Source: an uncultured Gammaproteobacteria bacterium (GTDB lineage Bacteria; Pseudomonadota; Gammaproteobacteria; JABCZS01). Taken from it: a stretch of 64,000 bases of DNA. Made by a program: the position numbers and the translations under genes. The notes beneath the pieces were generated by a model. The model worked only from the letters and a program-made list of their open reading frames with translations, was not told the DNA's origin and did not search any database. The stretch lies in assembly GCA_963848305.1 (NCBI GenBank), contig CAWKDC010000001.1, positions 288,001-352,000 on the forward strand, given 5' to 3'. Shown here piece after piece: positions 12,992 to 44,515 of this stretch (position 1 is its first letter; each line of letters opens with the position of its first letter).

Positions 12992-13705
12992 CTACACTTT
13001 GATGATCACACTCATGACAAACGCTAATATATTCATCATGGTCCAAAACAATACCATGGCAGACGGAAAGGGATAAAACAAAACCAGAAAAACAATGGCC
13101 ATCGCATATAAAAAGTATTTTTCGTTTGTCTTTTTCATCAAAAAGGTTGATAACATTGAGACGGCTGTCATCACAAAAGGCAAGATAGGATCAGGCAAGG
13201 ACAGATCCTCTATCCAAAGAAGTGAAGCCCCCTCCAACTCAGGCATTTTCCACAAGACATTAAAAATGGCGACCTGAATAGGTAATTGCACAGCAGGGCC
13301 AATCATGGGTTTCATGCCATAAAAAGGGGTGATACCTAATTCTTTGTATTCAGCCATGATGAGATGATGTGCTTCTTCCCCATCGTATTGTTTTTTGATC
13401 TCGTGAAGCTTCGATTTTAAAATCGCTGCATAGTGATCGTTCGTGCGTTGCATCTTTTCGACCCAGAATTGTAGCGGTAAAAAAATGACTTTAAAAATAA
13501 TTGCCAAAACAATAATAGCAATACCCCAATGATTCCTGAGTAATCCGCCTAATACGATAAAAGCCGTTTCAATAGCGCGACACACCACAGCCAACCATGG
13601 CCACAAATAATCATATTGCGCTGAGGATTGCACCAAATCATTCGCTTGAGCAACACCTGAAAAAATCAAGTAAAAAAATAAAGTCAAAAAAGCTATTGGT
13701 CGCAT
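12992..13705 (-). CDS. Short YidC/Oxa1-family insertase paralogue lacking the large periplasmic domain
   Basis: WGIAIIVLAIIFKVIFLPL, coiled-coil hairpin, VQLPI, LWIEDLSLPDP, FPSAMVLFW; probable start ATG 13705 (MRPIAF...). Confidence 0.8.
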   Translation of the reverse strand: MRPIAFLTLFFYLIFSGVAQANDLVQSSAQYDYLWPWLAVVCRAIETAFIVLGGLLRNHWGIAIIVLAIIFKVIFLPLQFWVEKMQRTNDHYAAILKSKLHEIKKQYDGEEAHHLIMAEYKELGITPFYGMKPMIGPAVQLPIQVAIFNVLWKMPELEGASLLWIEDLSLPDPILPFVMTAVSMLSTFLMKKTNEKYFLYAMAIVFLVLFYPFPSAMVLFWTMMNILAFVMSVIIKV

Positions 13706-15387
13706 GAAATACCACCCAAATCCGAACATTTTAAAATCCAATCTTGTGGATTACGTACATCACCATCAATCGTATATATTGTCAAAGGTGGAAGCTTACT
13801 GTCTCCCCAATAGGTTTCATCAAACTCATAGAAAATGAACTCTCTTACCCTTTTGTCAGTTTCTTGTAGTGCGATTATATTTTTACCGTTATTTAATAGT
13901 GGCATTTTCATGGCAGCCAATATTGTATTCGGGATATCATTGAGTGAGACAGGTGCATTCGATGTGCGCATAGGCCCAGCTGAATGAAATGGTTTGATAA
14001 AAAGTGTCGCGAGTGCAGTTGAATAATGTTTCTGACTGATTGGAGTCTGTATCAAATTTTGTTTCTGCGATTCAGATAGATAGTTTGAGCCATGATCAGA
14101 TGAAATGATGATCAACGAATTATCATAAATATCCGCTTTTTTCAGATTTTCCAACAATGAATCAATATGATTGAAAGCACATTGGGCCTGGTCTGTTTTA
14201 CCAATCAAACCTCTTCGAGAGGCCTTTGTGATACGCAATTCACAATCCTTACCAAGGACAGCTGGACTGTGGGTGATCATCGAATGATAAAATTTATAGG
14301 TTGGGTTGATATCGTCAACTGAGAATTGATCATTAAAATATTGAAATGCCAAATGATTCAAGCCGCCGAGTGTTGTTTCATGGCTCGGATTGACGAAATA
14401 TCGCCTGATTATCCAGTGGTCATCATGGTAAATGACAGGTTTAAGTATGTCAGGCACTGCTTTGAAAAGGCTATAATCGAGAAGTAAAAACGCGCTCTTA
14501 TCCGGGGATAGCTCTGGTTGCGAGATACAATTTTTAATGTGGGATTTATTGCAGTAATAACCCATTGTATATATCGAAGTTGAAAAATTACTCTGCTCTA
14601 ATTGCGTCGTCAGTGGATTATGACTAAGGACATCATCGAGGAACTGATTTTTATCACCATTGTTCTTATAAACCTCACCAGTCAACATCGCTGGAATAGC
14701 CATGTTAGTTGAGCGATAATTAGACGTTGTATTTGGAAAAAAGATAAATCCAGACAAATGTTGAATGAACGATGGATCAGTTTCAATCAAATGCTCAATC
14801 ACAGTTGACTGTTGCTCATCAAGCACAATGTGGATAATATTTTGGTGTTTTGAAAATGTGGCAAAGTCCTCTGGCATAAAGTTTGATTGATACTGACGCC
14901 TGTTGAGTTTATCTATATTGTTGATAACTTGAAATCCAGTGAATATCATGACTGCGCATAACAAACCCGTCACTGCCTGATACATCACGAAGTGTATCTT
15001 TTTGCAAAAGATAATGGCAGATATTAGCATAATAATCCAAATGGAAGCTTGAACAATTGATTTGACTGAAAATGGCTCAATCGACAACCCGCGGCCATCA
15101 AATGCGCCATAACTACCGAAGAGAAAATTTGCTGTTATCCAGCATAGTACTGCAAACATCGCTAAAAAAGCAAAATAGCGATCTCGAAATCCTGAATAAG
15201 GAATGATGGCAGGCAAAAAGGCCATGAGAAAGAGAATTACAAATGAAATACCCAATGTATAACAAAGTGATTTTAAGGGGATGGAAAACTCGTCTATATT
15301 ATTTATATAGATATCTACAGGCATCTGTATGCAAATCACAAATGCCAAGAATAAGCCTGCTGAAATAATAGGCAATATTTTTCTCAT
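13693..15387 (-). CDS. Membrane-anchored alkaline-phosphatase-superfamily phosphotransferase (LtaS/EptA/sulfatase-like)
   Basis: About 5 N-terminal TM helices; NIIHIVLDE, YRSTNMAIP (Thr nucleophile position, no CxPxR), ITHSP, ISSDHG. Confidence 0.8.
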   Translation of the reverse strand: MRKILPIISAGLFLAFVICIQMPVDIYINNIDEFSIPLKSLCYTLGISFVILFLMAFLPAIIPYSGFRDRYFAFLAMFAVLCWITANFLFGSYGAFDGRGLSIEPFSVKSIVQASIWIIMLISAIIFCKKIHFVMYQAVTGLLCAVMIFTGFQVINNIDKLNRRQYQSNFMPEDFATFSKHQNIIHIVLDEQQSTVIEHLIETDPSFIQHLSGFIFFPNTTSNYRSTNMAIPAMLTGEVYKNNGDKNQFLDDVLSHNPLTTQLEQSNFSTSIYTMGYYCNKSHIKNCISQPELSPDKSAFLLLDYSLFKAVPDILKPVIYHDDHWIIRRYFVNPSHETTLGGLNHLAFQYFNDQFSVDDINPTYKFYHSMITHSPAVLGKDCELRITKASRRGLIGKTDQAQCAFNHIDSLLENLKKADIYDNSLIIISSDHGSNYLSESQKQNLIQTPISQKHYSTALATLFIKPFHSAGPMRTSNAPVSLNDIPNTILAAMKMPLLNNGKNIIALQETDKRVREFIFYEFDETYWGDSKLPPLTIYTIDGDVRNPQDWILKCSDLGGISCDQ

Positions 15388-16505
15388 GTGAGTATCTCCA
15401 GTAAGGCGCGAGCACCTTTTTGGCCGCTTTGATGGATGTTGAATACATGAGATTCACGCATGATAGTCATTTTTTCTACCAAATGATTGTTGATAAGCAA
15501 CCTTTCTACATATTCTGTCAGCGCATTGAGTTTATCCAATGGGACAATTTCTCCGATTCTTTCGCGTATAAAATCTTCGAACGGAACAATGGCCAGATCA
15601 GTGTATCTCGGATTATTGATCTTCCTTTCTATATCTAAAAAAAGCACAGGTTTACCAAGACCGAAAGCATAATCCAGTGCCGCGCCAGACCAATCACTGA
15701 TCATCAACGATGAAAGATGCAATGATGATTGATCAGCCATATTGGTTTCAAATGAAAATAATAGATTACTGGCATATTTCTCTTTAATCTTTTTTAGAAT
15801 TCCGGAAGAAAACTTGACAGTTTGGGGATGCGGACGCAATGTGACTTTATAACCATGCTTCAGCAACTGCCCAATCACTTGATCACCTATAGTTTCTATC
15901 ATGCCATGCTGCCCCCACGAGGGGGCAATCAATATATGCTTTGGTTCTGGCATAATGTTGTGTGATTGTGCATTTGCTAAAATAGCATCTAGCCTTCCAT
16001 AGCCATGTTCAACTAATTTTTTTGGCTTCAACTGATGCAGTTTTTCCAAAGTGCGAATTTCATCAACATGATGAGGACCTGCGCAAAAAATAGTATCAAA
16101 ATGATCGAAAGCACCAGGACGGTACACCATATGGCAGCTAACCAATGCATGATGAACATAAACATAGTGAACAGGGTATCGGGAGCGTTTAACTTGAAAA
16201 TTGTCTAAATCAGGCATCGTCATGATCATGACATCTGTATCAATATTAGAGAATAACCAGTTCCTGAGAAATCCTTCGTCCAAGTAAAAAATGGTCAGGT
16301 TTGGATGATCAACCTCAAATGCGGGATCATCTAATCCTGACGTGATATAGCAAACAGGAATATCACTTAGGATCAAAAATGATCTTAATAGGCTTTCCAA
16401 GTGCGGCCAATTTGATTTCCCCTCGGAATAAAAAACAATGCGACGCCTAGATTTAGGCAATTGCATGAATGTCGCTATATCAAAGATTGATCGAAAAAAA
16501 CTCAC
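15384..16505 (-). CDS. CDP-glycerol glycerophosphotransferase (TagF/TagB)-family protein
   Basis: HHAL, GYGRLD, ILIAPSW, LRPHP, MISDWSGAALDY motifs. Confidence 0.85.
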   Translation of the reverse strand: MSFFRSIFDIATFMQLPKSRRRIVFYSEGKSNWPHLESLLRSFLILSDIPVCYITSGLDDPAFEVDHPNLTIFYLDEGFLRNWLFSNIDTDVMIMTMPDLDNFQVKRSRYPVHYVYVHHALVSCHMVYRPGAFDHFDTIFCAGPHHVDEIRTLEKLHQLKPKKLVEHGYGRLDAILANAQSHNIMPEPKHILIAPSWGQHGMIETIGDQVIGQLLKHGYKVTLRPHPQTVKFSSGILKKIKEKYASNLLFSFETNMADQSSLHLSSLMISDWSGAALDYAFGLGKPVLFLDIERKINNPRYTDLAIVPFEDFIRERIGEIVPLDKLNALTEYVERLLINNHLVEKMTIMRESHVFNIHQSGQKGARALLEILT

Positions 16506-17262
16506 TTAAATCTCCTGAAGCATATAATTGCTCGTACAGTTTCAAATCATCGACAGAATCAACTTCTAGCCAGCCATTTTTAACAGGAATAGCTTTGATT
16601 TTCCATCCAGCATTTATCAATGATTGAAGAAAGCTTGTCATGTACATTTGATCAAATTGTTTACCGTCGTAAATTGCTTGTTTATCTAATCGTTCATAGA
16701 AATCGATCATTTCAGGGATTCGACCTGCTTTGATTTTGATCAACCCTGTGTATTGCCCTTGAATATCGTTGAATGATGCTGGTTTCTTACCGAGCTCTTT
16801 CACGAGACCATCCTCATCCATTTTAAATGATTCAGCGTCCGACAGCGGATCTTCAAATCGAAGTGACCAATAAGATTTCCAATCAATATCACACATAATG
16901 CTTATCTCAGCATCTGATGCAAGAATAGCTTTTAAATTTTCTGATTGATATATGATATCACCATAGGAAATCAGCAAATCATCCTCACCTTTCAAGTAAT
17001 CCATCGCTGAAAACAAAGTTGCAACCATATTGGTTGTTTCAAAATGCGGATTAACAGAACAAACATAGCCGTGATGCATTATCTGATCAGCGCAATACCC
17101 TCCCACAACATGGATATTTTTCACGCCACAGTCTTGCAAAACACCAGATTGCCAAGCCAAAAGAGATTTCCCTAAAAAAGGAACCAGGCACTTAGGTCGA
17201 TTATTTGTTAAAGGCCTTAATCGTGTCCCCTGCCCCGCTGCTAAAATAATCGCGCGTGTCAT
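16480..17262 (-). CDS. CTP:phosphoglutamine cytidylyltransferase-like NTP transferase (Cj1416/LicC family)
   Basis: IILAAGQGTRL..PKC, TNMV, ISYGDI, WSLRFEDPLSDAE, MYMTSFLQ, WLEVDSVDDL match remembered Cj1416 motifs. Confidence 0.85.
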   Translation of the reverse strand: MTRAIILAAGQGTRLRPLTNNRPKCLVPFLGKSLLAWQSGVLQDCGVKNIHVVGGYCADQIMHHGYVCSVNPHFETTNMVATLFSAMDYLKGEDDLLISYGDIIYQSENLKAILASDAEISIMCDIDWKSYWSLRFEDPLSDAESFKMDEDGLVKELGKKPASFNDIQGQYTGLIKIKAGRIPEMIDFYERLDKQAIYDGKQFDQMYMTSFLQSLINAGWKIKAIPVKNGWLEVDSVDDLKLYEQLYASGDLSEFFSINL

Positions 17263-17861
17263 GCTATTAATCTCCTGAGCAATGCGATGTCTTCTTCGCT
17301 TTTTGTCGATTCACGCTCTGGGTGCCACATGATACCTGTAATATTGTATTCAGGATGAATAAAAGCTTCGATGGAACCATCCTTATGGATAGCTGTCGGC
17401 ACCAAGACCCTAGAAAGTTGTTCCGGGTACATTCCAAAGTCATGATAGCTATTGACGTCTCTTGCGTGATCCTCTGCCCACGCATTACTGAATAAAACTT
17501 CATGACGTGTGAGTTTATGTCCAGCCAGCTTAACAAGCGTACCGCCGAAATATCGATTCAATGTTTGCATGCCTCGACAAAATCCTACGATGGGAATATT
17601 TTTATTGATCGCCCAATCTATCAACGCAAACTCGAAAACATCTCGTGTCGCATCATCATCACCGCCTGTGAAAAAAATGGCTGAGAGATTTAATGATTCT
17701 GCATAGGGTGCTGCTAAAGACCCAGACAAAGTGGCTAAAGGAACAGGAAAAAAACCCAATGCCTCAGCTACTTGCCACCAGCGCCTGTCTAAACTGTCTC
17801 TTTGTTCATGGTATTGCTCTACCACTGTGACTCTTTGGGTGAATCCAATTTTTTTGCTCAT
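17259..17861 (-). CDS. Gamma-glutamyl-CDP-amidate hydrolase-like class I glutamine amidotransferase (peptidase C26, Cj1417-like)
   Basis: IGFTQRV..YHEQRD.L...W, GFCRGMQ (Cys), NSYH, MWHPER (His-Glu); start 17861 overlaps upstream stop as ATGA. Confidence 0.88.
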   Translation of the reverse strand: MSKKIGFTQRVTVVEQYHEQRDSLDRRWWQVAEALGFFPVPLATLSGSLAAPYAESLNLSAIFFTGGDDDATRDVFEFALIDWAINKNIPIVGFCRGMQTLNRYFGGTLVKLAGHKLTRHEVLFSNAWAEDHARDVNSYHDFGMYPEQLSRVLVPTAIHKDGSIEAFIHPEYNITGIMWHPERESTKSEEDIALLRRLIA

Positions 17862-20836
17862 GATAATCCCCGTACTTGTTGCAGACCACAATCTAAATGC
17901 AGAAAACTTGATCGACATAACTCTTCATACAATTTATCCCCTACACCAATCGCAGCAGGAATTGCCATTTCAGCTGCGCGAATGGCCATATGGGAATTTG
18001 CCCCACCATATTGTGTGATGAGACCTGCTATTCCATGCGAGAAAAGCCAATCATATCCTGGATCAGCCTGGGGAACCAAGACAATCGACCCGCGAAGATT
18101 GTCATGTTTATCATGTGAAACAGCCGGGGCAGTCACCGTCATGGTGGTGATAAAATTAGGTTGAGAGGTCATTCGCTCAAAACAATAAAAATCATTTTCC
18201 GAAACAATCAGTTGTGGCAGCTCAACCATTTTAGTCAGTTTCGCATTTCTACGACGTTGATCAACAATCTCTTGAATCATCGATACATTCAATTGACCTG
18301 ATCTTATTTGCTTAAACTCATCGAACTGCAAATATGAAATTGACTCACGCGAAAGCCCTACAAGTTTTCCAAAATGAGAAAAATGGTCTAGTGCAATACT
18401 CAGATTTTTCGTAAATTCAAACTTGACAGACTCGCGTGATTTGATAGCGCTTATCAAATAATTCACAAAGCACGAGAAAGAGATTGGCGATCCCAGATCA
18501 TTCAATACTGTCTGAATTGCATATTCAGCATTTTTTGAAAAAATAAATTGTTTATGTTGCGGTTTCTCATGAATCAATTTTGTTTTACGCAATAGATACC
18601 GTTCAGCTTCCTCCCAATACGCATGTTGTGTAATTTCATATGTTCCTGGCCTGAGGTGCCCATATCGCTGGCAAAAAACATTAACATCTAACTGATCATT
18701 TGCGACCTGATATGCATCTTCTTCAAATTCGCCAGCCACAGTTTTGATGGCATTCAAAAAGTCCTGCTTATCTTCAACAGATAAAATATGCGCTCTCACA
18801 AGACTATTGATAAAACTCATAGCGACAAAACCTGCTCTAGCTGCATGAGCAAATGCAAGTGTACCGAATTGGCGACAGTCCTCCAACAGTAAAATGGCTT
18901 TGTCGAGCGGTTCTAAATCACTACCCAGTATCAGTTTTCTTCTTTCCTCAAGTTGATTTAAGCTCGATATGTCATTATCAAGTCGTGTTAACGCTTGACG
19001 GGTGAGGATTTTCAATCCGTCTGACAACGCGATGATCTCATCGTGAGTGATGCCCAGTGGCGTTAATCTTGCTTTAGCTTCCTGCTCAAAGGTTGGTGTC
19101 CACACTGTAAAGGCAACAGCAAATTCAAGTTTGTCGTGAAGGTGTGGATTAGTGCTCAGAATGGACAGGTATGCATTGACAAGTCTTTTGGCACAATCAT
19201 GGCTCACTGTTTTTGGGATAAATGAATTAAGACTGGCTCGAATATCAACATAAGGTTGACCACAAAATGACACCAAAAGAGGCTGCGGGCGAACATCACG
19301 GTATCCGAACTGTGCACGTTGCGTTGCCCATACATCATCTGTAATCAGGAAACGATAAAGACTATAAGCCAGTGGTCTTGGGCGGATTCCAATAATTTCT
19401 GCGGGATTCCAATCGGGCATAACGCCAAATAATGTTTTTTCTCCTAACATAAATGGAGTAGGAATCTGAAGTGTCTGGAAAAGCTTTTTACTTTGATGAA
19501 GAGAGTCAGCAATATCGTTATCGCTGATATCATAATTGCTGTGATCCACTGTGATTGGACGCACCTGAAAAATATGCACAGTGCCACGTTTATCAACGGC
19601 AAATTCCACATCAAAGCGATCATAATCTAAGAGCACTTCGAGCTCACGAACAGCCCCGACAACGGGCGGCAGCTCTGGCGCAATATCAACGACAGATGAC
19701 GTTTGATCGCGGTTAATCAATACGGTTCTCAGATGTGCGCCATGACCAGAAGTGACAGATTCTGTCGAGCAAGATTGGTCGTCGAAGTTGATGCGATAAT
19801 AAGGTGAACCTGTTTCAAGTCCACGTGTAAATACGACACCCGAAAATTGAACGTCTGATAAAAAAGATTGAATGAGAATTTGATCTGAATGAGAAGATTC
19901 ACCAGATCGATACGATGCCACAACACTTTCAATACCGACATAAACATCTTGATAATTTCCGCTATCCACATTAAGAATGCTGGTGTAACAACCTGCATTT
20001 GATTTTGACCAATTGTCTTCAGATTTAGAACTGCTTCGAATAACGATTGGTGAATCATGAAAGGATTTTTTTATTTCACAAATAATGTCATTGGGTTTCT
20101 GAAGCCATTCTTTCACAGTGAAGCAACATTGCTCACCAATCACAGACTTTTTGACAAGTGGAGATAGACGGCTGAGGGTTTCTGCTTTCGTACCTAAAAT
20201 AAAATGCGCGATGTCTTTCGGGGAATTGAACTCAGTCCAGGCGCCTTCAGCATTGATCGATTGAATGCTGAAACCCTTTTTTGACAGAAATGTGAGCAAA
20301 TCCGTTAAATGCTGTCCAACCCATCGTTCATTCAAATCGATCATGTATTGACTTGCAAGAGGAGAAAATTTTAGCAGTCCTGTAAATTCCATTATTTGAC
20401 CGTCAATAGACATGACCTCTGCGCGCTTGATATCTTCTGGATCACGGTTGTCGTAACGATGTCGCCACTGTGCATCGTAAACCCAAACAACATCAGCCGT
20501 TTGTTCATATGCTTGACGAATGACCTCCGGTCGAAAAATGGTATCTGCGTAGGAAACAATGGTTGTGGCGGCGCGCCAGGGTGCCTGAAAAAGTGTATGG
20601 AGCACTGAATGTGACTGCCACTCCGGTACAACGATATAATGCAATTGTGGATAAGCAGCAATAATATCATCAATATGATACCCGCCTAAAAAATGAACTT
20701 TGGGCTGAGGCAATACGGACAAACTGTGTATCTGCCAATCTAACGCACGCTTCTGGATGCCGATTTCTTTGAGGGCAGATGGCTTCTCTCCAGAAACAGG
20801 TCGTCCTGCTCCTAGAAAGAAAACATCACAGGCTAT
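17858..20836 (-). CDS. L-glutamine kinase-like PEP-utilising/ATP-grasp enzyme (Cj1418-like) with extra N-terminal NTP-transferase domain; start uncertain
   Basis: TKAETL, IRSSSKSED, SNAG, FGVMPDWNPAEIIG, GHLRPGTY, ADPGYDWLF, GGANSHMAIR (phospho-His). Frame stays open upstream of 20722 to 20866 and encodes DVFFLGAGRP...KPSAL. Confidence 0.88.
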   Translation of the reverse strand: MACDVFFLGAGRPVSGEKPSALKEIGIQKRALDWQIHSLSVLPQPKVHFLGGYHIDDIIAAYPQLHYIVVPEWQSHSVLHTLFQAPWRAATTIVSYADTIFRPEVIRQAYEQTADVVWVYDAQWRHRYDNRDPEDIKRAEVMSIDGQIMEFTGLLKFSPLASQYMIDLNERWVGQHLTDLLTFLSKKGFSIQSINAEGAWTEFNSPKDIAHFILGTKAETLSRLSPLVKKSVIGEQCCFTVKEWLQKPNDIICEIKKSFHDSPIVIRSSSKSEDNWSKSNAGCYTSILNVDSGNYQDVYVGIESVVASYRSGESSHSDQILIQSFLSDVQFSGVVFTRGLETGSPYYRINFDDQSCSTESVTSGHGAHLRTVLINRDQTSSVVDIAPELPPVVGAVRELEVLLDYDRFDVEFAVDKRGTVHIFQVRPITVDHSNYDISDNDIADSLHQSKKLFQTLQIPTPFMLGEKTLFGVMPDWNPAEIIGIRPRPLAYSLYRFLITDDVWATQRAQFGYRDVRPQPLLVSFCGQPYVDIRASLNSFIPKTVSHDCAKRLVNAYLSILSTNPHLHDKLEFAVAFTVWTPTFEQEAKARLTPLGITHDEIIALSDGLKILTRQALTRLDNDISSLNQLEERRKLILGSDLEPLDKAILLLEDCRQFGTLAFAHAARAGFVAMSFINSLVRAHILSVEDKQDFLNAIKTVAGEFEEDAYQVANDQLDVNVFCQRYGHLRPGTYEITQHAYWEEAERYLLRKTKLIHEKPQHKQFIFSKNAEYAIQTVLNDLGSPISFSCFVNYLISAIKSRESVKFEFTKNLSIALDHFSHFGKLVGLSRESISYLQFDEFKQIRSGQLNVSMIQEIVDQRRRNAKLTKMVELPQLIVSENDFYCFERMTSQPNFITTMTVTAPAVSHDKHDNLRGSIVLVPQADPGYDWLFSHGIAGLITQYGGANSHMAIRAAEMAIPAAIGVGDKLYEELCRSSFLHLDCGLQQVRGLS

Positions 20837-21048
20837 TGTGGGGTTGTTTTCTCGGGTTCTTTTTTTTTAGATTTCACAAATAGGGATTTTATTTTGTACC
20901 AATACCCCTTGACAGCCATCACTGATGCCACCAATAACCCAGCCAGGGCTGACAAAATGGCACTGCCCGAACCCGGGTCAATGTAGGCCATCGCAGGTGT
21001 GGCGAATAAACTGAGACATATTGTCGCCATGAGAAATCGTGTATGCAT
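20833..21048 (-). CDS. Small membrane protein: signal peptide, YIDPGSGS motif, TM helix, basic tail
   Basis: MHTRFLMATICLSLFATPAMA-YIDPGSGSAILSALAGLLVASVMAVKGYWYKIKSLF...; AGGGG RBS at 21056-21060. Confidence 0.8.
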   Translation of the reverse strand: MHTRFLMATICLSLFATPAMAYIDPGSGSAILSALAGLLVASVMAVKGYWYKIKSLFVKSKKKEPEKTTPQ

Positions 21049-21127
21049 TGTATTGCCCCTGAAATCCTTTAACACTCTGCAATATTACATGCAATGTGCC
21101 TAAAATACAAGGCGGATATAACGTAAG

Positions 21128-23733: not shown

Positions 23734-24681
23734 ATGACTCAACCTAAAGAACCAATACAGACAGATACCACGCTGACCGAGCAAGAAAAGGCCATTCTCT
23801 GGGGGATGCTGGCTGCCACTGCCTACGAACTTGTCGTTGTCGGCCTCGCTGTTTATTTGTATTTTGAATACGGCCTCATCGAAACCATGATATCTACCAT
23901 GGTGGCGCTCGGCATCCAATTGCTGGCCATGAAAGCTTTGAAAAAAGACATTCACCCTGTCTTATACGTTCAATTTTTTATTTTAATGGTATTTGGTTTG
24001 CCTGCGATGCTAGTCGATGAAGATTTTTATAAGTATTCGCAAGTCGGATCTGGGCTGATCATGGGACTTGCCTTTTTTGCACGATCTTTTTATGCGTCCT
24101 ATTACGACCAAACGGTACCTCCGCTTGTGCAATCGTTTATTCCAAACGATGCAACAGGCGCCCTGTCGAAATATTTTCATCTTAAGGATGAAGCATCTCA
24201 ACATACACGCATAAAACAATGGACACTGATCGGTCTTTCAATAGGAATCATCATTGGATTATCTCTTTTATACACTCAACAAGACGTTCTGCACAGCGAC
24301 TTTTTAGAAGAATGGGCTTCTTGGCTGTGCATAGCTGCGCCAGTCATTGCTACACCACTGTTGGGGTGGGGTTCTGCACATTTGGTCCAAGCATTTCCGC
24401 GCATCCATGATACGATCGCGTCGTCAATACCTCAAAATCCGCATTTATGGCGAAAAGTCGATCACCTCTGGTCCGCCGAAATGACAGCCAGCGCATTGAT
24501 CAGTGGTGCCGTTGCGCTTTGGGGTAATACTGATCAATGGTTTATTGGCAGCTATACCATTGGGCCGTCGCTCACATTCATTGCTTTCGCGATCTGGGGA
24601 AAATGGATGTATGATGCGGCTAAGTCAAGTTCTTCAGCACAGGCAACTGAGCCCAGCGCGTTGTGTAAGCAGGCGACTTAA
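23734..24681 (+). CDS. Multi-pass membrane protein, divergent YciB/IspZ-like with internal insertion
   Basis: ILMVFGLPAMLVDEDFYKY and LWRKVDHLW...WGNTDQW resemble the two halves of YciB; about 7-8 TM segments. Confidence 0.5.
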   Translation: MTQPKEPIQTDTTLTEQEKAILWGMLAATAYELVVVGLAVYLYFEYGLIETMISTMVALGIQLLAMKALKKDIHPVLYVQFFILMVFGLPAMLVDEDFYKYSQVGSGLIMGLAFFARSFYASYYDQTVPPLVQSFIPNDATGALSKYFHLKDEASQHTRIKQWTLIGLSIGIIIGLSLLYTQQDVLHSDFLEEWASWLCIAAPVIATPLLGWGSAHLVQAFPRIHDTIASSIPQNPHLWRKVDHLWSAEMTASALISGAVALWGNTDQWFIGSYTIGPSLTFIAFAIWGKWMYDAAKSSSSAQATEPSALCKQAT

Positions 24682-25885
24682 ACTCAAATTGCGTATCCCA
24701 GGTTTTATCAAAACCAACTGAAGCCAATCGCACAGTATTTTTACCGTACCGTTTATTGATGCTATCGAAAATAGATAAAAATGCGGCGGTTTCTTCCTCT
24801 TTTGCCTCATCTTGTTTTTGAAATAAATCACATTGAATAATGCTGTTGTCTGATAAATCATCCAGCCACACGCCTACTTTTTTGTATTGAAAAGCGGGCT
24901 TAAAAATCTCGCGCAAACATTGTTTGGCATGATGGGTGAGCACCCTTATATCATCGGTTGGCACAATAAAACGCACGGAGGCTGATTGTTCATATTGAGG
25001 CAAATCCTCCCGAAAACGATTCGTGCGCAAAAAAACACTGAGATGCCTTGCCAATGATCGTTGCTGACGCAATTTCTCATAAACGGATGCACAATGCATG
25101 CTAACGGCCTGCGCAAGCACATCCAATTCTGTTTCCATTTTATTGAAAGAACGGGATGATAGGATAGATTTTCTCGGCTCTTCTACTTGCTCCATCGCCA
25201 AACAAGACACGCCATTTAATTCCATCGCCGTTCGCATCATCACCACATTATATTGCCGCCTCAATTGATTCGGATCGATCTGTGTTAAATCGTATGCAGT
25301 ATTGATGCCTTGACACATCAGTTTTTTACGCCACTGCCGCCCTATTCCCCACACATCGCCAATATCGATTCTCTTCAGCCAATCAAGCTCGTTCATCACA
25401 TTAAACACAGGCACTTTCAAACATTTTTTAGCGACATGATTTGATATTTTGGTTAACGTTTTGCTCGCGCCCAAGCCAATCGAGGTGGGAATGCCTGTCC
25501 ATTTGAAAATCTTTTTTTGTAGATCGATACAAAAGGATTCGTGACGATCAGGCGGCAAAGCTGATAAATTTAAAAATGCTTCATCGACAGAATATATTTC
25601 AACCTCTTCCCAGGCATCCTCAATCACAGACATCACACGCTGTGATAAATCCCGGTAAAGCGTGAAATTCGATGAAAACACATGAATATGTTTGCTCATG
25701 CAAAATGGTTTGATTTTAAAATAAGGCTCACCCATCTCAACGCCGAGCGCTTTCGCTTCATTTGAGCGCGCAATCACGCAGCCATCGCCACTTGATAAGA
25801 CGACAATGGGCTTTCCTATTAAATCCGGGCGAAATAGCCGTTCGCAAGATGCATAGAAGTTATTACAATCGACCAATGCATACAT
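24620..25885 (-). CDS. umuC: Y-family DNA polymerase V catalytic subunit
   Basis: ALVDCNNFYASCE, YSVDEAF, DVWGIG, C-terminal SPAYTTRW. Confidence 0.95.
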   Translation of the reverse strand: MYALVDCNNFYASCERLFRPDLIGKPIVVLSSGDGCVIARSNEAKALGVEMGEPYFKIKPFCMSKHIHVFSSNFTLYRDLSQRVMSVIEDAWEEVEIYSVDEAFLNLSALPPDRHESFCIDLQKKIFKWTGIPTSIGLGASKTLTKISNHVAKKCLKVPVFNVMNELDWLKRIDIGDVWGIGRQWRKKLMCQGINTAYDLTQIDPNQLRRQYNVVMMRTAMELNGVSCLAMEQVEEPRKSILSSRSFNKMETELDVLAQAVSMHCASVYEKLRQQRSLARHLSVFLRTNRFREDLPQYEQSASVRFIVPTDDIRVLTHHAKQCLREIFKPAFQYKKVGVWLDDLSDNSIIQCDLFQKQDEAKEEETAAFLSIFDSINKRYGKNTVRLASVGFDKTWDTQFEFKSPAYTTRWAQLPVLKNLT

Positions 25886-25892
25886 ACTATAT

Positions 25893-26414
25893 TTACTCCG
25901 GCGTATGAATCACGTGGGTGACAACTCCCCAAATCACCAATTCGTGCATATCAGTGATATCCATCGGGTGATACTGTGGATTGGCGGGCATGAGTTGTAA
26001 ACGCCCATTTATTTGCGACAGCCGTTTCACGGTTAATTCCCCGTCTATGGCTGCAATCACGATTTTGCCATGCCGAGCCTCTAGGCTTCTGTCGACAATC
26101 AGCAGATCACCAGATTGAATGCCCGCACCCGTCATCGAATCCCCCGAGGCGATAACCATAAAGGTAGCTGCCGGGTGCTTGATGAATTGCTGGTTTAAAT
26201 CGAGATAACGTTCAATATAGTCGTCCCCAGGCGCAGGAAAGCCAGCGGGAACTTTACTACCGTACAAGGGGATGCCGTGCTTATGTTCAAGTAACAGCTG
26301 AATATCGTCCACCCGGGAGACTGGGACGCGGATAGACTGCGTCGGGCTTAACCCGAACTTCCCGCGCCCCACAGGCCGCCCCGCCCCTTCCCGCCGACCA
26401 CCCCTTTGAGCCAC
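25893..26414 (-). CDS. umuD: UmuD/S24 peptidase with N-terminal GGRREGAGRP extension
   Basis: VPAG/FP cleavage site, GDSM (Ser), TVKRL (Lys); probable GTG start 26414 after AGGGG RBS. Confidence 0.9.
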   Translation of the reverse strand: MAQRGGRREGAGRPVGRGKFGLSPTQSIRVPVSRVDDIQLLLEHKHGIPLYGSKVPAGFPAPGDDYIERYLDLNQQFIKHPAATFMVIASGDSMTGAGIQSGDLLIVDRSLEARHGKIVIAAIDGELTVKRLSQINGRLQLMPANPQYHPMDITDMHELVIWGVVTHVIHTPE

Positions 26415-26426
26415 AACTGCACCCCT

Positions 26427-26479
26427 TTTGATTATTGAAACAATATTCAAATAGTAGGTTAAGCGCTAAGGCCTGTCAA
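26427..26479 (-). promoter_or_regulatory. umuDC promoter with downstream palindromic operator candidate
   Basis: Minus strand TTGACA (26479-26474), 17 nt, TACTAT (26456-26451); inverted repeat TTTGATTATTG-aaa-CAATATTCAAA at 26427-26451. Confidence 0.7.
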
Positions 26480-31408: not shown

Positions 31409-32131
31409 CTACAATGCCGTCACGACCACTGGCTTCTCGATCGGACCGCGATCTGTTTGCAATTTCACCACCACTTCCTTCGCACCCTTCACTTCTTTCC
31501 ACTTCAATGGCCAGACTTTAGATTGTTCTGGAAGCAAATAAACAAATTTGTCTTTGGTCACCGTGGTTTCCAAAGGTTTTTCCTCACCTTGGTAAAAATC
31601 GATATTCGTGATTTGAATATGACGATTGCCAGCATTCTTAATATGCAATTCCAAATCACCATTAGGCAAAGATTTTGTATCAATACTCAAATCATCGATT
31701 TTGTTTTTCGGTTCAATGAAAACGGGTATGCTAAAGCGAATAAGGGTCTCGACCTGAAAAGAATCAGTCTTGTTTTTAGAAGGAACCTGCGTTGCAATCA
31801 CACGGTAGGTGTGCTCAATTTTGGGATTCAGTGGCGCGCGAAGACCAACGCGCACCAACTGATAACTTTCCTCAGCAATGTTGGCAATGGGTGGATTCAA
31901 GATTATGTCTTTCGTATCGGTGTAAACATCTTTCCCTTCTTCCTGCGTCCATTTGAATGCCTTCAATTGAAACAACACAGGATCCTTACCCGCATTCACC
32001 ACTTTGAACGAGTCAATCGTTTGGCCCGGCTCAAACTTCAGCCTGACAGGATTAATATGAACTTCTGCGGCCAAGAGCATGCAAGGTACAACAAGGAAAA
32101 CAAAAGCAAAAAAATGTTTTACACGTAACAT
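31409..32131 (-). CDS. Fimbrial periplasmic chaperone (CsuC/PapD-like)
   Basis: INPVRL, FKWTQEEGKD, PPIANI..QLVRVG, EHTYRV, FSIPVF, NAGNRH. Confidence 0.9.
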   Translation of the reverse strand: MLRVKHFFAFVFLVVPCMLLAAEVHINPVRLKFEPGQTIDSFKVVNAGKDPVLFQLKAFKWTQEEGKDVYTDTKDIILNPPIANIAEESYQLVRVGLRAPLNPKIEHTYRVIATQVPSKNKTDSFQVETLIRFSIPVFIEPKNKIDDLSIDTKSLPNGDLELHIKNAGNRHIQITNIDFYQGEEKPLETTVTKDKFVYLLPEQSKVWPLKWKEVKGAKEVVVKLQTDRGPIEKPVVVTAL

Positions 32132-32153
32132 AACAACACCTACTTAAATCAAC

Positions 32154-32658
32154 TTAAAACACAACGTCAACTGTAACCGTATCTGAATAACTATCATCTA
32201 CCACAGATGTCTGTCCCGCAGGAACTTGACCATAAATGGTATACGTTTGTGGCAAGCCTGTGCCTGTGCCACATTGATAGTCAGTACCCACAGTCCCATC
32301 ACCCCACACTGGCACTCAATGTGGATGTGGTGTAAAGTTCATAGCCAAGTAAATCACTGGAAGTTCCGCCAATCATATTGCGACTGAGCACTGAGTCGGA
32401 GTTAAGACCAGCATTTAAATAGATGCCGTAAAGAGTACCATCTACGCATGTAACGTACATATCCGTCTGCGCTGAAAGTGCAGTATCATCTACAGGATCG
32501 TACGCGCCAAAAGCCAATGGATCTGGCACGCTAACAACGCATGCTGAATTGACAGCAGCATTTACCAAAAAAGTTTCGGCCGCGGCCTGTGCCGCATAAA
32601 AAAACATGGAAGCGGCCGCAACGCCTGCTAACATTCTTTTGAGTTGATGGTTAACCAT
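32154..32658 (-). CDS. Csu-type (spore coat U domain) pilin; frameshift near 32311
   Basis: ETFLVNAAVNSAC..LAFGAYDP; continues in shifted frame PVWGDG...YTIYGQVPAGQ...YSDTVTVDVVF to TAA at 32154. Confidence 0.85.
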
Positions 32659-32713
32659 TTAACACTCCTTGTTCACGGTTGATATCCTTAGCACAGTCTA
32701 CAACAATTTCGGG

Positions 32714-32744
32714 AAAAAGTCACCCCTTTTTTCGGAGTGACTTT
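32714..32744 (-). terminator. Intrinsic terminator after pilin 32760-33248
   Basis: Minus strand GTCACTCC-gaaaaaa-GGGGTGAC followed by TTTTT. Confidence 0.7.
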
Positions 32745-32759
32745 CTTCCGTTTTAAACA

Positions 32760-33248
32760 TTAGAAAGTCGCAGTTACTGTAATGGTATCAGAGTAGCTGT
32801 CATCTTCAACTGTTGTTTGACCTGCGGCAATTTGACCATAGATTGTATAAGGTTGATCAACACCTGAACCTGTACCAGACACTGTATTGGTACCTACCGT
32901 ATCACCCCATTCTTCGCTGTACATATTATCTTGATAAAGATTATATGCGAGAAGATCCGATGTCGTTTCACCAAGCATATTGCGGGTTGTGACATCACCC
33001 GGGGTGCCTGCATTTTGACCTGCATCCAGTGAAATATTGTATGCTGCACCATTAGTACATGCTGCAGACAGGACAGTAGAACCGTTGGTAAATTCGCTAT
33101 CAACTGGATCGTATGTTCCAAATGCCAGTGTGGGCGCACTGAAAACGCATGTGCTTCCGACAGTAGCTGTTACCAAAAATGTCTCAGCAAACGCACTCAC
33201 AGCACATACGCTCAGTACTGCTGCAGATAATAATTGAAGTTTCTTCAT
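32760..33248 (-). CDS. Csu-type pilin, probable major subunit (CsuA/B-like)
   Basis: ETFLVTATVGSTC..LAFGTYDP..C..YNLYQD..WGD..YGQI..YSDTITVTATF; own RBS and terminator. Confidence 0.9.
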   Translation of the reverse strand: MKKLQLLSAAVLSVCAVSAFAETFLVTATVGSTCVFSAPTLAFGTYDPVDSEFTNGSTVLSAACTNGAAYNISLDAGQNAGTPGDVTTRNMLGETTSDLLAYNLYQDNMYSEEWGDTVGTNTVSGTGSGVDQPYTIYGQIAAGQTTVEDDSYSDTITVTATF

Positions 33249-33346
33249 ATAAAATTCCTTTTACAAGTTTAGATGCCCTTTCGGGATATAAAAAAATATA
33301 GTGCTTATTTTCGCGCTTTACAAGAAGATTTATGTAAATAATTTTT

Positions 33347-33871
33347 TTAATAAAGCACACTTACCGTGATCGTATCGGTATAAGTATCAGATGGCAGTTT
33401 TGTTTGATAAGGAGAAACAACACCATATGCAGCAATTGTTTGTTGTATACCTGTGGCTCTTGTTGATACAACTGTACTGCCATTATCTCCATCACCCCAT
33501 TGTGGGCCACTCAATTGTATTGTTGGATAAATCCGGTATGGAAGTAAAGCGCCATGCATGCCACCTTTCATGTTTCGCGTGTTCACGTTGTTAGGAGTGG
33601 ATGGATATAGGCCAGCATTCAGTGTGAGCGTGTAAGGCGTGCCATTCACACAAGTAGCGTAAATAAAACCTGCATTGGTAGATGTTGTCTCATTGGTATT
33701 TTTATCTTTCGTATCGGTAGGATGATACTGACCAAAAATAAGCGGCAATGCAGTGATTGAACAAGTCGGTTTAACAACTGCTTGCACCAAAAAGGTTGTA
33801 TTTGAACTGGCAGCGAATATTTGCACCGGGAAAATTGAAAGAAAGATAACTAATAATATTGACTTTTTCAT
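33347..33871 (-). CDS. Csu-type pilin
   Basis: TTFLVQAVVKPTC..LIFGQY..C..WGDG..YTDTITVSVLY. Confidence 0.88.
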   Translation of the reverse strand: MKKSILLVIFLSIFPVQIFAASSNTTFLVQAVVKPTCSITALPLIFGQYHPTDTKDKNTNETTSTNAGFIYATCVNGTPYTLTLNAGLYPSTPNNVNTRNMKGGMHGALLPYRIYPTIQLSGPQWGDGDNGSTVVSTRATGIQQTIAAYGVVSPYQTKLPSDTYTDTITVSVLY

Positions 33872-33935
33872 TGTTAGATTCCTGTCATGCTTTAGTTACT
33901 AAAATTATAACCAAAGAATCCAGAAAGTCAACTTT

Positions 33936-36900
33936 TCAAATTGGGCAATAGACAAATGCGGAGGTGCCTACCGTGGTTTCCAAGGAGGCAGTGATGGGCC
34001 ACTGTGCACTGCTAGGCGTAATGGTTAGATCGCGGTTCAAGCTACCCGATTCACAGGGCTGATAATCTAATACAATGTTACAAGAAGCGAGTGCATCTAG
34101 GGTTTGCCCATCCGTACAGGTTGAAGCGTTATCGATGATCACAGCCGTTTGCCCTAACGAATCATTATTCACCAGGTCGACATTGATCACCGTATCCGTT
34201 ATACCTTGATTTTCGATGGAATAGGTAACTTGGATAGGGTTTGTACAATTGGCTGTACTCAAATTATCGGGTGTGGTTGGTGTACTTGTAAAAACAATGC
34301 CACAGTTATCTAAACTCGCATTGCAACGCTCTTGAGGTGTAGTAGCTAGCGCATGGGTGCGTGCACCCTTTTTGGTTGAAGGGCAAGTAGGAAGGCTGCT
34401 GCTCACTAAATTTGCTGTACCACCTGCAGTAGTGACTGTTACACCCACCTGCCCTGCTGGATCTGGAGGCGTAATCGCTGTGATCGTTGTCCCATCACTT
34501 GAAACGCTCAGGACTGTTGCAGATTTACCTCCGATGGTGACGACAGAACCCGCAGTAAATCCTGCCCCCATTAATGTGACCTCTGTTCCGCCTGATGTAC
34601 TGCCATAATCGGGTGCGATAGAAGCAATGGACGGAACGTAGTTGAACAACACTGGAGCGGAAGTACCCCCAGCTGAGTTCACGGTCACACTGGCCTGCCC
34701 TTGCCCCACGGGACTGATGACAGTTATTTGAGCATCGCTGATGAATGTGAACGGAATGCTTGTATCATTCCACGTCACACTCGTTGCTTGTGTAAAATTA
34801 ACCCCTTGAATGCTCACAGATGTCCCGCCACTGGGCGAACCTGCATTAGGACTGAGTGAAGCAATTGAAGGGGCATTGTAAGTGAAGACATCATTCGGAT
34901 TGATTGCACTGCTTCCACCAGGTGTTGTCACTTGAACATCAACAGGTCCCGCACCCGACGGTGAGACTGCCGTGATGGTGCTGTCATTGACAACCGTAAA
35001 TGATGCTACAGGTTGATCCCCAAAATTCACATCTGTTACGTCTGTGAAGTCGCTACCTGAAATTGTGACCGATGTTCCTCCTGCTGCTGGACCCGAGTTG
35101 ACACTCAAACCCGTGACAACTGGAACAGCATAATAGATGAATTGATCGACAGAGGAAGTCGCACTCGTGCCATTGCTATTCGACACTGTCACATCCACTG
35201 TGCCTGTGCCTGCTGGTGCAGTCGCCACAATGCCCGTTGTGCCTGAGCTGGACTGCACGACCGCTTCTACTTCACCAAAATATACAGTGGTACCAGAGGT
35301 AAAACCTGTTCCGGTGATCGTGACTGCAGTTCCCCCATTGAGCGACCCACCAGAAGGACTCACAGAAGACACAGAAGGCGTATTATTGTATGTGTAACTA
35401 CTGTAGGTTGCTGAACCTACGCTATTGGTCACAGTCAGTGTCACAGCCCCCGCCGACTGTGGAGGAGCGATCGCTGTGATACTATCGTCACTGTTCACAG
35501 TATATGAAGTTGCATTGATAGTACCAAATTGCACACCTGAAGCACCTGATACCGTTAAAAATCCTGTGCCGATAATCATGACAGGTGTTGTTCCCCCAAC
35601 AGAACCGGCATCAGGTGAAATCGATGTGATGGTCGGCGCTTCAGTATAAGTGAATTCACTGGCCGATGTTTCGGGTGTTGTTCCTGAACTATTCGTGACA
35701 GTAACATTCACCACGGTTGAGCCATTGATCAGCAGGGCGGTTGATGGCGGCGCAATGGCCGTGATCTGTGTATCGCTGTGAATCACAAATGATGTCGCAG
35801 GTGTTGTGCCAAAATTCACTGCGGAAGCCGTTGTGAAACCTGTTCCTGTGATCAATACAGAGGTTCCACCCGTAATAGAAGTGGCTGGCGGATTAAGTGC
35901 CGTGATAGTAGGAACCGTATCGAAAGTATACGCATTGGCTAACGTATAGGACCCCACATCATTCGTGACGGTGATGCCCACCTGCCCCACCGCATGTGCA
36001 GGGGTGATCGCTGTGATTTGTGTGTCACTGTTCACAGTGAATGAAGAAGCTGCAACAGAACCAAACTGCACATCCGTCGCGCTTAAAAATCCTGTGCCAC
36101 TGATCACAACAGATTGATCACCTGTGCTAGGCCCTCCATTTGGCGTCACTGCAGTCACCAAAGGAAGATAGGAAAACTGATCAGCTGAAGTTGTTGGGCT
36201 CGTTCCTCCGGCCGTTGCCACAGTGATATCGACTTGACCCGTGCCAGCAGGTGCAACTGCCATGATTGCTGTATCAGTATTCGTCAACACCGTACCGGGA
36301 TTATCCTCGCCAAAATAAACGTCTAAGGCATTGCTCATCCCTACCCCTGTGATTGTCACCACTGTCCCACCAGCGCCACTGCCTACATTAGGCGTGATCG
36401 CAGTCACCACAGGCACATATGACAATTTTGCAGCGTTTGAAATGGCGTTTGTTCCATCAGCATTCGCAATGGTAACGTAAACGGCACCTGTCCCAGCTGG
36501 AATGCTGTCAATCACTATGCTGGTCTCCGTCATTGATGCAGGAGTCACTAAATTGCTTCCCAAATAAACGGTTGTGCCTGCAATAAATCCTGTCCCATTG
36601 ATTGTCAAGCTCACGTTTCCGGTGGCAGGAACTGCGTTGGGACTCAAGCTTGTGATGCTTGGAGAAGAATTATATGTAAAAGCATTGGTTGAATTCCCTG
36701 TTCCAGTGACATTGTCGACAGAAACTGTCACTGGACCATTCGTGCCCGGTGGTGTAATGGCAGTGATTCGCGTATCACTTGTTACTGTAAAGGAGGTTGC
36801 ATCGATGCCTCCAAATTGAACTGATGTCGCCGTTAAAAACCCTGTGCCCTTGATGAGCACGACTGTGCCACCTGCATTGGATCCTGCAGGAGGACTGACA

Positions 36901-43417: not shown

Positions 43418-43509
43418 CACATTCCTTGTCATGCACATACCAAACAACGAACGCAATATATCAAAAAAAGTTGAATATTGCAAGGATTTTTTTAGCGAAC
43501 ATTTCTAGA

Positions 43510-43965: not shown

Positions 43966-43980
43966 CTGACCCTCCGAAAG

Positions 43981-44487: not shown

Positions 44488-44515
44488 ATGATATAAACAT
44501 CCTCATTAAAAACAT

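Follow-up and report, generated by a model that had tools for sequence, protein, structure and literature searches.

A widespread membrane module of TagF-like, LtaS-like and YidC proteins with a small peptide, encoded beside putative phosphoramidate donor genes in a gammaproteobacterial operon

In Campylobacter jejuni, Cj1418, Cj1416 and Cj1417 are reported to turn glutamine, ATP and CTP into cytidine diphosphoramidate, to which Cj1415 then adds a 3'-phosphate (PMC11800397). Here we describe an operon from an uncultured Gammaproteobacteria bacterium (assembly GCA_963848305.1, contig CAWKDC010000001.1, positions 288,001 to 352,000; this whole stretch of 64,000 nucleotides (nt) is the window) in which the same three donor enzyme families are encoded side by side, together with a small membrane peptide, a TagF-like transferase, an LtaS-like membrane enzyme of the sulfatase family and a YidC paralogue. 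The donor genes correspond to a variant of the phosphoramidate pathway known from Campylobacter. It differs from the O-methyl phosphoramidate (MeOPN) pathway of C. jejuni in that there is no Cj1415-type 3'-kinase in the genome, no capsule locus in the window and no methyltransferase in the operon, and also in a degenerate nucleotidyltransferase (NT)-like domain on the kinase, a C26 hydrolase that scores below its family cut-off and a TagF-like transferase that we propose to be tethered to the membrane. We read the operon as a donor cassette plus a conserved four-part membrane module that would relay a cytidine monophosphate (CMP)-activated phosphorus group, here an unmethylated phosphoramidate, from the cytoplasm to the periplasm, and we put the probability of this reading at about 0.45. 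The module itself is real, widespread and unnamed; synteny and gene fusions couple its parts, and the steps of the relay are proposed from that coupling.

Several described systems come close to parts of the module. TagF-type enzymes expel CMP from a donor of the type CDP-X (CDP, cytidine diphosphate). Like TagF, TarF, TarL and FtaD, the operon enzyme matches PF04464 and is modelled with the GT-B fold of TagF; it differs from TagF and TarL in being a single domain of 373 aa that is paired with or fused to a peptide anchor and coupled to YidC and an LtaS-like enzyme. LtaS and EptA transfer a phospho-alcohol head group from a phospholipid to a Thr and on to an envelope acceptor, leaving diacylglycerol. 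With LtaS, EptA (MCR-1) and PbgA the operon enzyme shares five transmembrane (TM) segments and a periplasmic sulfatase-fold domain with a Thr and Asp/His metal ligands, but its sequence resembles theirs only weakly and in predicted structure it scores level with true sulfatases; its gene stands with that of YidC or is fused behind it, and in place of phosphatidylglycerol or phosphatidylethanolamine it would presumably draw on a donor lipid that the TagF-like enzyme produces for it. The module YidC has the full core of YidC/Oxa1 insertases and is a second copy beside the housekeeping gene; unlike them it shares an operon with a transferase or is fused to it, and can be repeated in tandem with it, and the window copy is without the P1-like region. 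Among TagF-like enzymes, FtaD of C. difficile is described as using a non-polyol CDP donor that the genes next to it supply, the CDP compound being a substrate for a methyltransferase (bioRxiv 10.64898/2026.02.12.704994).

A further parallel lies in phosphonate (Pnt) clusters, where fusions of phosphoenolpyruvate (PEP) mutase and nucleotidyltransferase (PntC) are reported to make CMP-2-aminoethylphosphonate (CMP-AEP) for tailoring of the cell surface (PMC6697681), and where clusters 'that encode multiple sulfatases' are assigned to Group 4 phosphonolipids (PMC8942020). A PEP mutase-NT fusion stands next to the module in 17 of the 80 loci that we surveyed. The next steps named in one of these papers are LicD-like transferases and glycosyltransferases (PMC6697681), and the accessible portions of both (PMC6697681, PMC8942020) make no mention of TagF, YidC or a peptide component. 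Our literature search, which covered sources outside subscription journals, found no description of a YidC, sulfatase-like and TagF-like combination, in line with an earlier note on this DNA that knew of no characterised system so composed. What appears to be new is the assembly (a TagF-like enzyme with a peptide anchor, a YidC tied to an LtaS-like enzyme, and plug-in donor cassettes), each part coming from a known family.

The operon lies at 12992-21075, where open reading frame (ORF) calls give seven head-to-tail, co-oriented genes with overlapping junctions, transcribed in the order peptide, glutamine-kinase-like protein, C26 hydrolase, NT, TagF-like, sulfatase-like and YidC. All seven are on the minus strand, and the earlier note was right to place seven co-oriented genes at 12992-21048. 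Start and stop codons overlap as ATGA between the hydrolase and NT genes and between the TagF-like and sulfatase-like genes, and likewise between the kinase and hydrolase genes if the hydrolase starts at M20; the NT and TagF-like genes overlap by 26 nt and the sulfatase-like and YidC genes by 49 nt. Because the junctions overlap, several of them as ATGA, the genes look translationally coupled. The genes that flank the operon, Mfd and an ABC transporter at one end and YgjP, YaiI and RlmN at the opposite end, are unrelated. No capsule or lipopolysaccharide (LPS) genes were found across the whole 64-kb window, as had been claimed for capsule genes. The arrangement is more than chance, since the same genes recur together at 80 loci in many phyla, which include Pseudomonadota (Pelagibacteraceae among them), Bacteroidota, Acidobacteriota, Bdellovibrionota, Verrucomicrobiota, Cyanobacteriota and others.

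These loci were collected from one-genome-per-species contigs with an alignment of TagF-like orthologues and scanned by tblastn. Profiles made from these hits were then run on six-frame translations, with >=100 bits as the limit for counting a sulfatase-like gene. The peptide was detected at 68 of the 80 loci, YidC at 61 and the sulfatase-like gene at 49; all three were present at 41 and none at 6. Many of the missing module genes coincide with contig ends, and at the 53 loci with >=5 kb on both flanks the counts are 49 for the peptide, 40 for YidC and 39 for the sulfatase-like gene, with all three at 34 and none at 4. The survey that the earlier note had proposed, on whose co-occurrence result it had staked its hypothesis, thus strongly confirms that the four module genes travel together (41/80 loci, 34/53 with full flanks), and it also shows, on the accompanying donor-synthesis genes, that these differ between loci.

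Gene fusions tie the module parts in pairs. At 12 loci the peptide motif, without the signal peptide, forms the N-terminus of the TagF-like protein; nine of these records are from Bacteroidota (Bacteroidales or Salinivirgaceae) and the others from Verrucomicrobia, Pseudomonadales and Sedimenticola. At 8 of these 12 loci a YidC domain is fused ahead of the sulfatase-like domain, and three loci (L069, L070 and L077) hold such YidC-sulfatase fusions in tandem, as two or three copies; in L077 (11093-20566) up to three of them stand beside one peptide-TagF protein. The fused TagF forms make up one clade of the TagF tree (12 rows, support 100). A search for longer proteins with the peptide profile found 16, all of 413-453 aa; 10 of the 16 carry PF04464 and none carries another family.

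The donor genes fall into three classes. Class A, to which the window belongs, has the kinase, C26 hydrolase and NT (28 loci, all three genes in 26). Class B (27 loci) has one 219-aa S-adenosylmethionine (SAM) methyltransferase, weakly similar to TehB/MduS, as the sole gene between the peptide and the TagF-like gene (for example L054:9298-9957); we would guess that the donor here is a methylated CDP. The kinase orthologue is absent from all five class-B genomes that were searched, which gave only weak PEP-utilizer matches of <=25 bits, and a profile of the class-B methyltransferase found no match in the genome of the window. Class C (17 loci) has PEP mutase fused to a cytidylyl- or nucleotidyltransferase; also present are phosphonopyruvate decarboxylase and either an Fe-alcohol dehydrogenase or an NT-aminotransferase. 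Eight loci are unclassed (L002, L004, L029, L031, L048, L059, L060 and L071), of which L002, at a contig end, shows pieces of the kinase, hydrolase and NT, and L059, also at a contig end, an NT fragment only. Because the module is wired elsewhere to phosphonate or methyltransferase genes, it probably decorates the envelope with small phosphorus groups.

One of the unclassed loci, from a Myxococcota-labelled record (L048:8952-12315), has an ATP-sulfurylase, a pyruvate-kinase-barrel protein and a 409-aa protein without a family after the TagF-like gene, which may be a fourth kind of donor cassette.

The TagF-like gene (15384-16505, 373 aa) matches PF04464 (Glyphos_transf) at 37.1 bits against a cut-off of 22.1. 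The predicted model has a predicted local distance difference test score (pLDDT) of 90.5. In Foldseek, TagF chains fill the first 11 rows (E 5.7e-13 to 4.6e-12, TMq 0.55-0.60), led by Staphylococcus epidermidis TagF 3l7j (E 5.7e-13, TMq 0.56); the capsule polymerase 8qoy and TarL 8va1 follow. Sequence identity to the structural matches is 13-17%, and a PDB sequence search with the profile found no solved relative. Six histidines (H35, H67, H113, H119, H125 and H226) are invariant in 23 TagF-like sequences. Hydropathy reveals no TM segment, so that the protein is predicted to be soluble or peripheral, with an N-terminal amphipathic helix. Its relatives number 3969 at E<=1e-3, the top matches having >50% identity, and the genome holds one copy only, with no second TagF-like gene.

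The small peptide is encoded at 20833-21048 (longest ORF to 21075) and belongs to no known family. Starting at M10 (21048), which coincides with the end coordinate of the earlier note, yields a normal signal peptide, and the product is probably 71 aa long. It consists of a signal peptide ending in A-x-A, the sequence Y-I-D-P-G-S-G-S, one TM helix and a basic tail, K-G-Y-W-Y-K-I-K; the hydropathy profile likewise has two hydrophobic segments and a basic tail. This would fit a hairpin precursor that is N-out/C-in after cleavage, with a predicted periplasmic N-tail, and the build resembles what we take to be that of small YidC substrates such as M13 procoat and Pf3 coat. An alignment of 41 sequences has Y31, D33, P34 and K56 invariant and Ser at position 38 in 40; at the signal-peptide site, -1 is Ala in 40/41 and -3 a small residue in 41/41. 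Along the mature peptide, an invariant Y-[IL]-D-P leads into G-S-G-S, the TM helix has many small residues, and the K-x-Y-W-Y-K-x-K tail begins with the invariant Lys. There is no Pfam or NCBIfam family for the peptide and its ESM Atlas clusters are all annotated 'hypothetical protein', while a search of 1.84 billion cluster representatives with its profile yields 12325 matches at E<=1e-3, of which 3500 reach E<=1e-10.

The conserved hydroxyl residues raise the question of whether the peptide is itself modified. Sulfatase-family PptA and EptC modify Ser/Thr of proteins, and the peptide could serve as carrier or acceptor, with a Ser/Thr of G-S-G-S or the N-terminal Tyr receiving the group and YidC translocating the loaded N-tail. 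The invariance of Y31, D33 and P34, the near-invariance of S38 and the predicted periplasmic position of the N-tail would agree with this. The motif is variable, however (P-A-S-T-S, P-M-A-G-S and P-A-T-G-A occur), with no fixed hydroxyl besides the Tyr, and at the 12 fusion loci it is the N-terminus of the TagF-like protein, which would make it a single-turnover carrier; we consider such a role very unlikely.

The sulfatase-family membrane enzyme (13693-15387) matches PF00884 at 35.8 bits (cut-off 25). It has five hydrophobic TM segments, with loop charges that fit an N-in orientation, and a 409-aa periplasmic domain. At the nucleophile position, T227, set by the motif register, 33 of 37 sequences have Thr and 4 have Ser; D190, H373, D431, H432 and K465 are invariant (n=37), and the C-x-P-x-R formylglycine motif is absent from the enzyme. 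The periplasmic Thr-nucleophile enzyme of the earlier note accordingly stands, in that five TM segments, a predicted periplasmic domain and Thr/Ser at the nucleophile position are all found. The predicted model (pLDDT 91.5) has PbgA 6xlp, MCR-1 9nww and EptA 5fgn as full-length Foldseek matches. A profile search gave 50.7 bits for LtaS 2w5q and 52.7 bits for a choline sulfatase, and VIA-align of residues 180-564 gave Z values of 22.6-25.1, tied between sulfatases, PbgA and LtaS (LtaS 22.7, PbgA 23.9, sulfamidase and choline sulfatase 25.1). No second sulfatase-family gene was found in the genome, which holds one copy only.

Elsewhere the sulfatase-like gene is often duplicated, with two tandem copies in L003 (6533-9912) and further duplications in L037 and L040. 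Such copies might be transferases for different acceptors that all draw on a single TagF product.

The last gene of the operon encodes a short YidC/Oxa1 paralogue (12992-13741, 249 aa; PF02096 at 96.4 bits with a cut-off of 35, TIGR03592 at 94.9 with a cut-off of 84.3). The housekeeping YidC is encoded separately (C1:1137395-1137931, in a 576-aa frame, 227 bits), making the operon gene a second copy. Its orthologues, of 333-535 aa, have an N-terminal region of ~140-200 aa that the window protein is without, comprising a signal/TM segment and a periplasmic stretch with the motif F-x-G-L-A-x-Y-Y/L-N; the closest loci, L002 and L003 (62% and 60% identity to the window YidC), keep this region. Position K84, which precedes an invariant P89, is Lys in 38 of 43 sequences and Arg in 1, its equivalence to the canonical Arg being judged by eye. 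In a three-chain prediction of YidC, the sulfatase-like enzyme and the mature peptide, the last as scored partner, the score was 0.34, against 0.00 for the best of 3 controls; the partner pLDDT was >=63, the runs agreed in >=90% of contacts, and the score fell to 0.00 once the sulfatase-like chain was replaced. The mark set for such scores is reached by 116 of 157 solved complexes and by 2 of 215 mismatched pairs, and in the range of <=0.60 it is reached by only 18 of the 157 solved complexes and by both passing mismatches. The prediction lends the relay weak support and hints that the peptide docks on the membrane domain of the sulfatase-like enzyme.

On the donor side, the glutamine-kinase-like gene runs from 17858 to 20722 when counted from its first TTG (954 aa), with a frame that extends to 20836 and is open over 1002 codons. 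The protein matches NF004508 (PRK05849), a family presumably built on Cj1418, at 962.9 bits against a cut-off of 501, over residues 169-953 and profile positions 4-788 of 789. It contains an ATP-grasp PPDK_N domain (PF01326, 42.2 bits), a PEP-utilizers swivel domain (PF00391, 47.7 bits) and the phospho-carrier His motif GGANSHMAIRAAE. The N-terminal ~210 residues (window 20100-20836), in which Pfam finds no match, form a degenerate paralogue of the neighbouring NT: hhalign aligns this domain with the NT family at 99.6% probability (E 6.2e-25, 206 columns, 26% identity) and reveals that it is without five residues of the Gly-rich nucleotide-binding loop. It may be a non-catalytic partner or a CDP-binding domain. 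A PDB sequence search found no solved structures of Cj1416-1418 or of the kinase family.

The start of the kinase is unusual. Between 20722 and 20866 there is no ATG, GTG or TTG where the homologues begin, and near 20836, the homologous place, the only candidate in frame is an ATA (20836-20834) that overlaps the TAG of the peptide. In the closest locus, L003, an ATG at the homologous place overlaps the peptide stop. The first canonical start, the TTG at 20722, would remove the region of the Gly-rich loop. A metagenome contig (run X2) covers 20673-21091 without difference, so that the ATA junction is not obviously an assembly error.

The second donor gene (17259-17918) encodes a C26 hydrolase/class-I glutamine amidotransferase, with matches to PF07722 (75.7 bits) and PF00117 and with GFCRGMQ and WHPE of the Cys-His-Glu triad. 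Alignments of its homologues begin at residues 19-22, and the true start is probably M20 at 17861, which would give an ATGA overlap with the kinase stop. The best NCBIfam family is NF045546, gamma-glutamyl-CDP-amidate hydrolase (109.3 bits, positions 3-190 of 198; the next family scores 43.9 bits), and from this similarity the enzyme is likely to be such a hydrolase. The accessions flanking that model, NF045547 and NF045545, are unrelated families and not models for Cj1415/1416. The third gene, NT (16480-17262), matches NTP_transf_3 at 55.9 bits with an intact LAAGQGTRLRP loop. Its nearest solved structures are sugar-1-P nucleotidyltransferases and LicC, and its nearest named families are sugar-1-P nucleotidyltransferases; it adjoins the kinase and hydrolase in 26/28 class-A loci, and is likely a CTP:phosphoglutamine cytidylyltransferase.

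It is conceivable that the same module is fed by another CDP product, such as CDP-glutamine or another CDP-amino-acid derivative, in whose synthesis the NT-like domain of the kinase would take part. The hydrolase falls below the NF045546 cut-off, and the kinase bears an extra NT-like domain that Cj1418 is not known to have. In addition, a ~450-aa gene with a weak formyltransferase-like region follows YidC in 16/28 class-A loci and in 3 unclassed loci (for example L015:12363-13721 and L051:12222-13574), never in class B or C, and is absent from the genome of the window. Donors of the CDP-threonine type are reported to exist (bioRxiv 10.64898/2026.02.12.704994). Against this, the kinase matches NF004508 end to end and far over the cut-off, NF045546 is by far the best family for the hydrolase (109 vs 44 bits), and the kinase, hydrolase and NT together are the set described for CDP-amidate in C. 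jejuni (PMC11800397). Another CDP product is therefore unlikely in our judgement.

The genome, which is 92% complete, contains no stand-alone Cj1415-like gene of the adenosine 5'-phosphosulfate (APS)-kinase type: its sole PF01583 APS-kinase domain is the C-terminus of a 579-aa ATP-sulfurylase fusion, so that the absence of the Cj1415 kinase asserted in the earlier note holds for a stand-alone gene. This bears on whether the operon serves an ordinary Campylobacter-type MeOPN modification of a capsule, with Cj1415 and Cj1419-1422 encoded elsewhere. The incompleteness of the genome leaves some room for that, and generic SAM methyltransferases and homologues of Cj1421/1422 may be present. Apart from the missing kinase, however, the window has no capsule genes, and in 23 of the 28 class-A loci, those that show the peptide, the donor genes are embedded between the peptide and the TagF-like gene; we give an ordinary MeOPN pathway hardly any credence.

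Given these parts, we propose that the relay would proceed as follows. The kinase would phosphorylate the amide of L-glutamine, NT would form CDP-L-glutamine and the C26 hydrolase would free glutamate, leaving cytidine diphosphoramidate; because there is no Cj1415-type kinase, the unphosphorylated CDP-amidate would itself be the donor. A TagF-like enzyme should need no 3'-phosphate, as it is CMP that is expelled from CDP-X, and this fits the absent kinase. The small peptide, N-out/C-in, would hold the TagF-like enzyme at the cytoplasmic face of the inner membrane, where it would move phosphoramidate onto the hydroxyl of a membrane acceptor, most simply diacylglycerol, with release of CMP. Since the TagF domain is cytoplasmic and the sulfatase-like domain periplasmic, something must carry the group across the membrane, and a head-group lipid made by the TagF-like enzyme is the simplest carrier because enzymes of the LtaS/EptA type take phospholipid head groups. 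YidC, stoichiometric with the LtaS-like enzyme, would pass the head group along its hydrophilic groove into the periplasmic leaflet; alternatively, and minimally, it might merely assemble the complex. As a head-group mover it is plausible because the YidC-sulfatase fusions are stoichiometric and repeated, and E. coli YidC is reported to scramble phospholipids in vitro (bioRxiv 10.1101/2023.09.01.555937). The LtaS-like enzyme would then load the group on Thr227 and hand it to a periplasmic acceptor, which could be a glucan, the LPS core or a different glycan. In other bacteria the module would handle C2 phosphonates in class C and a methyltransferase-dependent group in class B.

The trans-envelope relay of the earlier note is upheld in part: the coupling of the genes, the predicted topology and the absence of Cj1415-type kinase and capsule genes speak for it. 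Every step of the relay is inferred, including the lipid that carries the group, its flipping by YidC and the acceptor that finally receives it, and this is the first of several points that weigh against it. Four loci with full flanks (L033, L057, L062 and L071) have a TagF-like gene without the peptide, YidC or sulfatase-like gene nearby, and among the 53 full-flank loci 13 are without YidC and 14 without a sulfatase-like gene. Of five genomes whose locus is without the sulfatase-like gene, two carry module-type copies at another place, one genome with matches of 527.6 and 505.4 bits and the second with one of 348.9 bits; the other three, which are metagenome-assembled or single-amplified genome records with no completeness reported, showed none elsewhere, and thus the TagF-like enzyme evidently can work without the other parts. 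As the fused TagF forms sit in one clade, each fusion may have arisen only once and is best not taken as several independent pieces of evidence. Classes A and B are intermixed on the TagF tree (15 changes for A, >=4 of them forced by well-supported branches, and 8 for B), and the five class-B genomes searched are without the kinase; either the TagF-like enzyme pays little heed to what the phosphate carries, or the product of the cassette is not its donor and feeds another step. That CDP-amidate is the donor we infer, because the hydrolase is under the equivalog cut-off of NF045546 (109.3 vs 250 bits) and Cj1416 is without a family model. The periplasmic domain is, in the predicted model, structurally no nearer to LtaS than to true hydrolytic sulfatases, and the three-chain complex score is only a weak pass.

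Through the TagF-only loci, the interleaving of the classes, the hydrolase score and the tie in sulfatase structure, direct decoration on the cytoplasmic side stays a serious rival, if a doubtful one. Here the TagF-like enzyme would load the final acceptor (an undecaprenyl-linked glycan, lipid A-core or a glycolipid) at the cytoplasmic face and ordinary export would follow; YidC would serve only to insert or chaperone the peptide and the 5-TM enzyme; a task of its own, such as trimming, moving or recycling the group, would fall to the sulfatase-like enzyme. The peptide does have the build of a YidC substrate (signal peptide, short acidic loop, TM helix, basic tail), and donor genes occur with the TagF-like gene and without the other module genes in L033 and L062, as well as in the short-flank locus L043. 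FtaD, which is TagF-like, is reported to act directly on a glycan (bioRxiv 10.64898/2026.02.12.704994). Many loci lie among genes of the O-antigen or capsule type, among them GDP-mannose dehydratase, ABC-2 transporter, glycosyltransferases, rmlCD and Wzy_C. In contrast, no glycan genes are found near the operon in the window, tandem stoichiometric YidC-sulfatase fusions (L069, L070 and L077) are hard to explain by insertion alone, and the Thr/Ser nucleophile and metal ligands are kept in 37/37 sequences, as in known transferases of this architecture. The trans-membrane relay remains the reading that we prefer.

A broader form of the relay, a 'made-to-order head-group lipid' system, is more speculative still and in our view rather doubtful. 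The TagF-like enzyme would join any small CMP-activated phosphorus group to inner-leaflet diacylglycerol, YidC would act as a dedicated scramblase and not as an insertase, passing the lipid to the LtaS-like enzyme that is its partner or is fused to it, and the LtaS-like enzyme would decorate LPS or glycans and regenerate diacylglycerol. The groups would be phosphoramidate here, C2 phosphonates in Bacteroidales and perhaps, in the methyltransferase class, a methyl-phosphate derived by CDP methylation. The LPS cores of Xanthomonas campestris and Shewanella MR-4 are reported to bear unmethylated phosphoramide (PMC8042644, PMC3210612); if true, the general relay would be the missing machinery behind this LPS phosphoramide and behind bacterial phosphonoglycans. 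The module could make testable which genes install the phosphoramide of these LPS cores, how phosphonates reach the cell surface from CMP-AEP, steps that have been called 'enigmatic' (PMC6697681), and whether the YidC fold was recruited to move a lipid head group, not a protein.

Judged from homology searches, the module is sporadic among relatives of the bacterium yet very common overall. Of 40 other relatives, 2 carry the TagF-like gene (0/2 of the same genus, 1/11 of the same family), and an even sample of 400 genomes from the class gave 11 carriers at E<=1e-60, the genome of the window included. Metagenome runs from soil and wetland contain near-identical contigs; in four runs, contigs span portions of the stretch, the uncovered bins being uninformative, and among public runs no RNA holder of the stretch is listed. 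In the window, no Rfam match was found, and scans for promoters (35 vs 29.5) and terminators (8 vs 7.2) gave counts close to those of shuffled sequence.

A UmuD-like (Peptidase_S24)/UmuC-like (IMS) pair lies at 24620-26450, ~3.5 kb from the operon, and a similar pair occurs 2-4 genes from the module in L019, L026, L060 and L076; this may be coincidence or reflect a shared mobile context. Three successive plus-strand ORFs at 49164-55359, of 649-650 aa and spaced by ~170 nt, look like tandem paralogues and have no Pfam match at E<=1e-5. At 31409-46957, a chaperone-usher cluster that includes several SCPU (spore coat protein U) subunits encloses a 2724-aa protein with ~30 TIG/IPT repeats (33936-42110), the stretch encoding the latter having a G+C content of 0.49-0.50 vs ~0.42 nearby.

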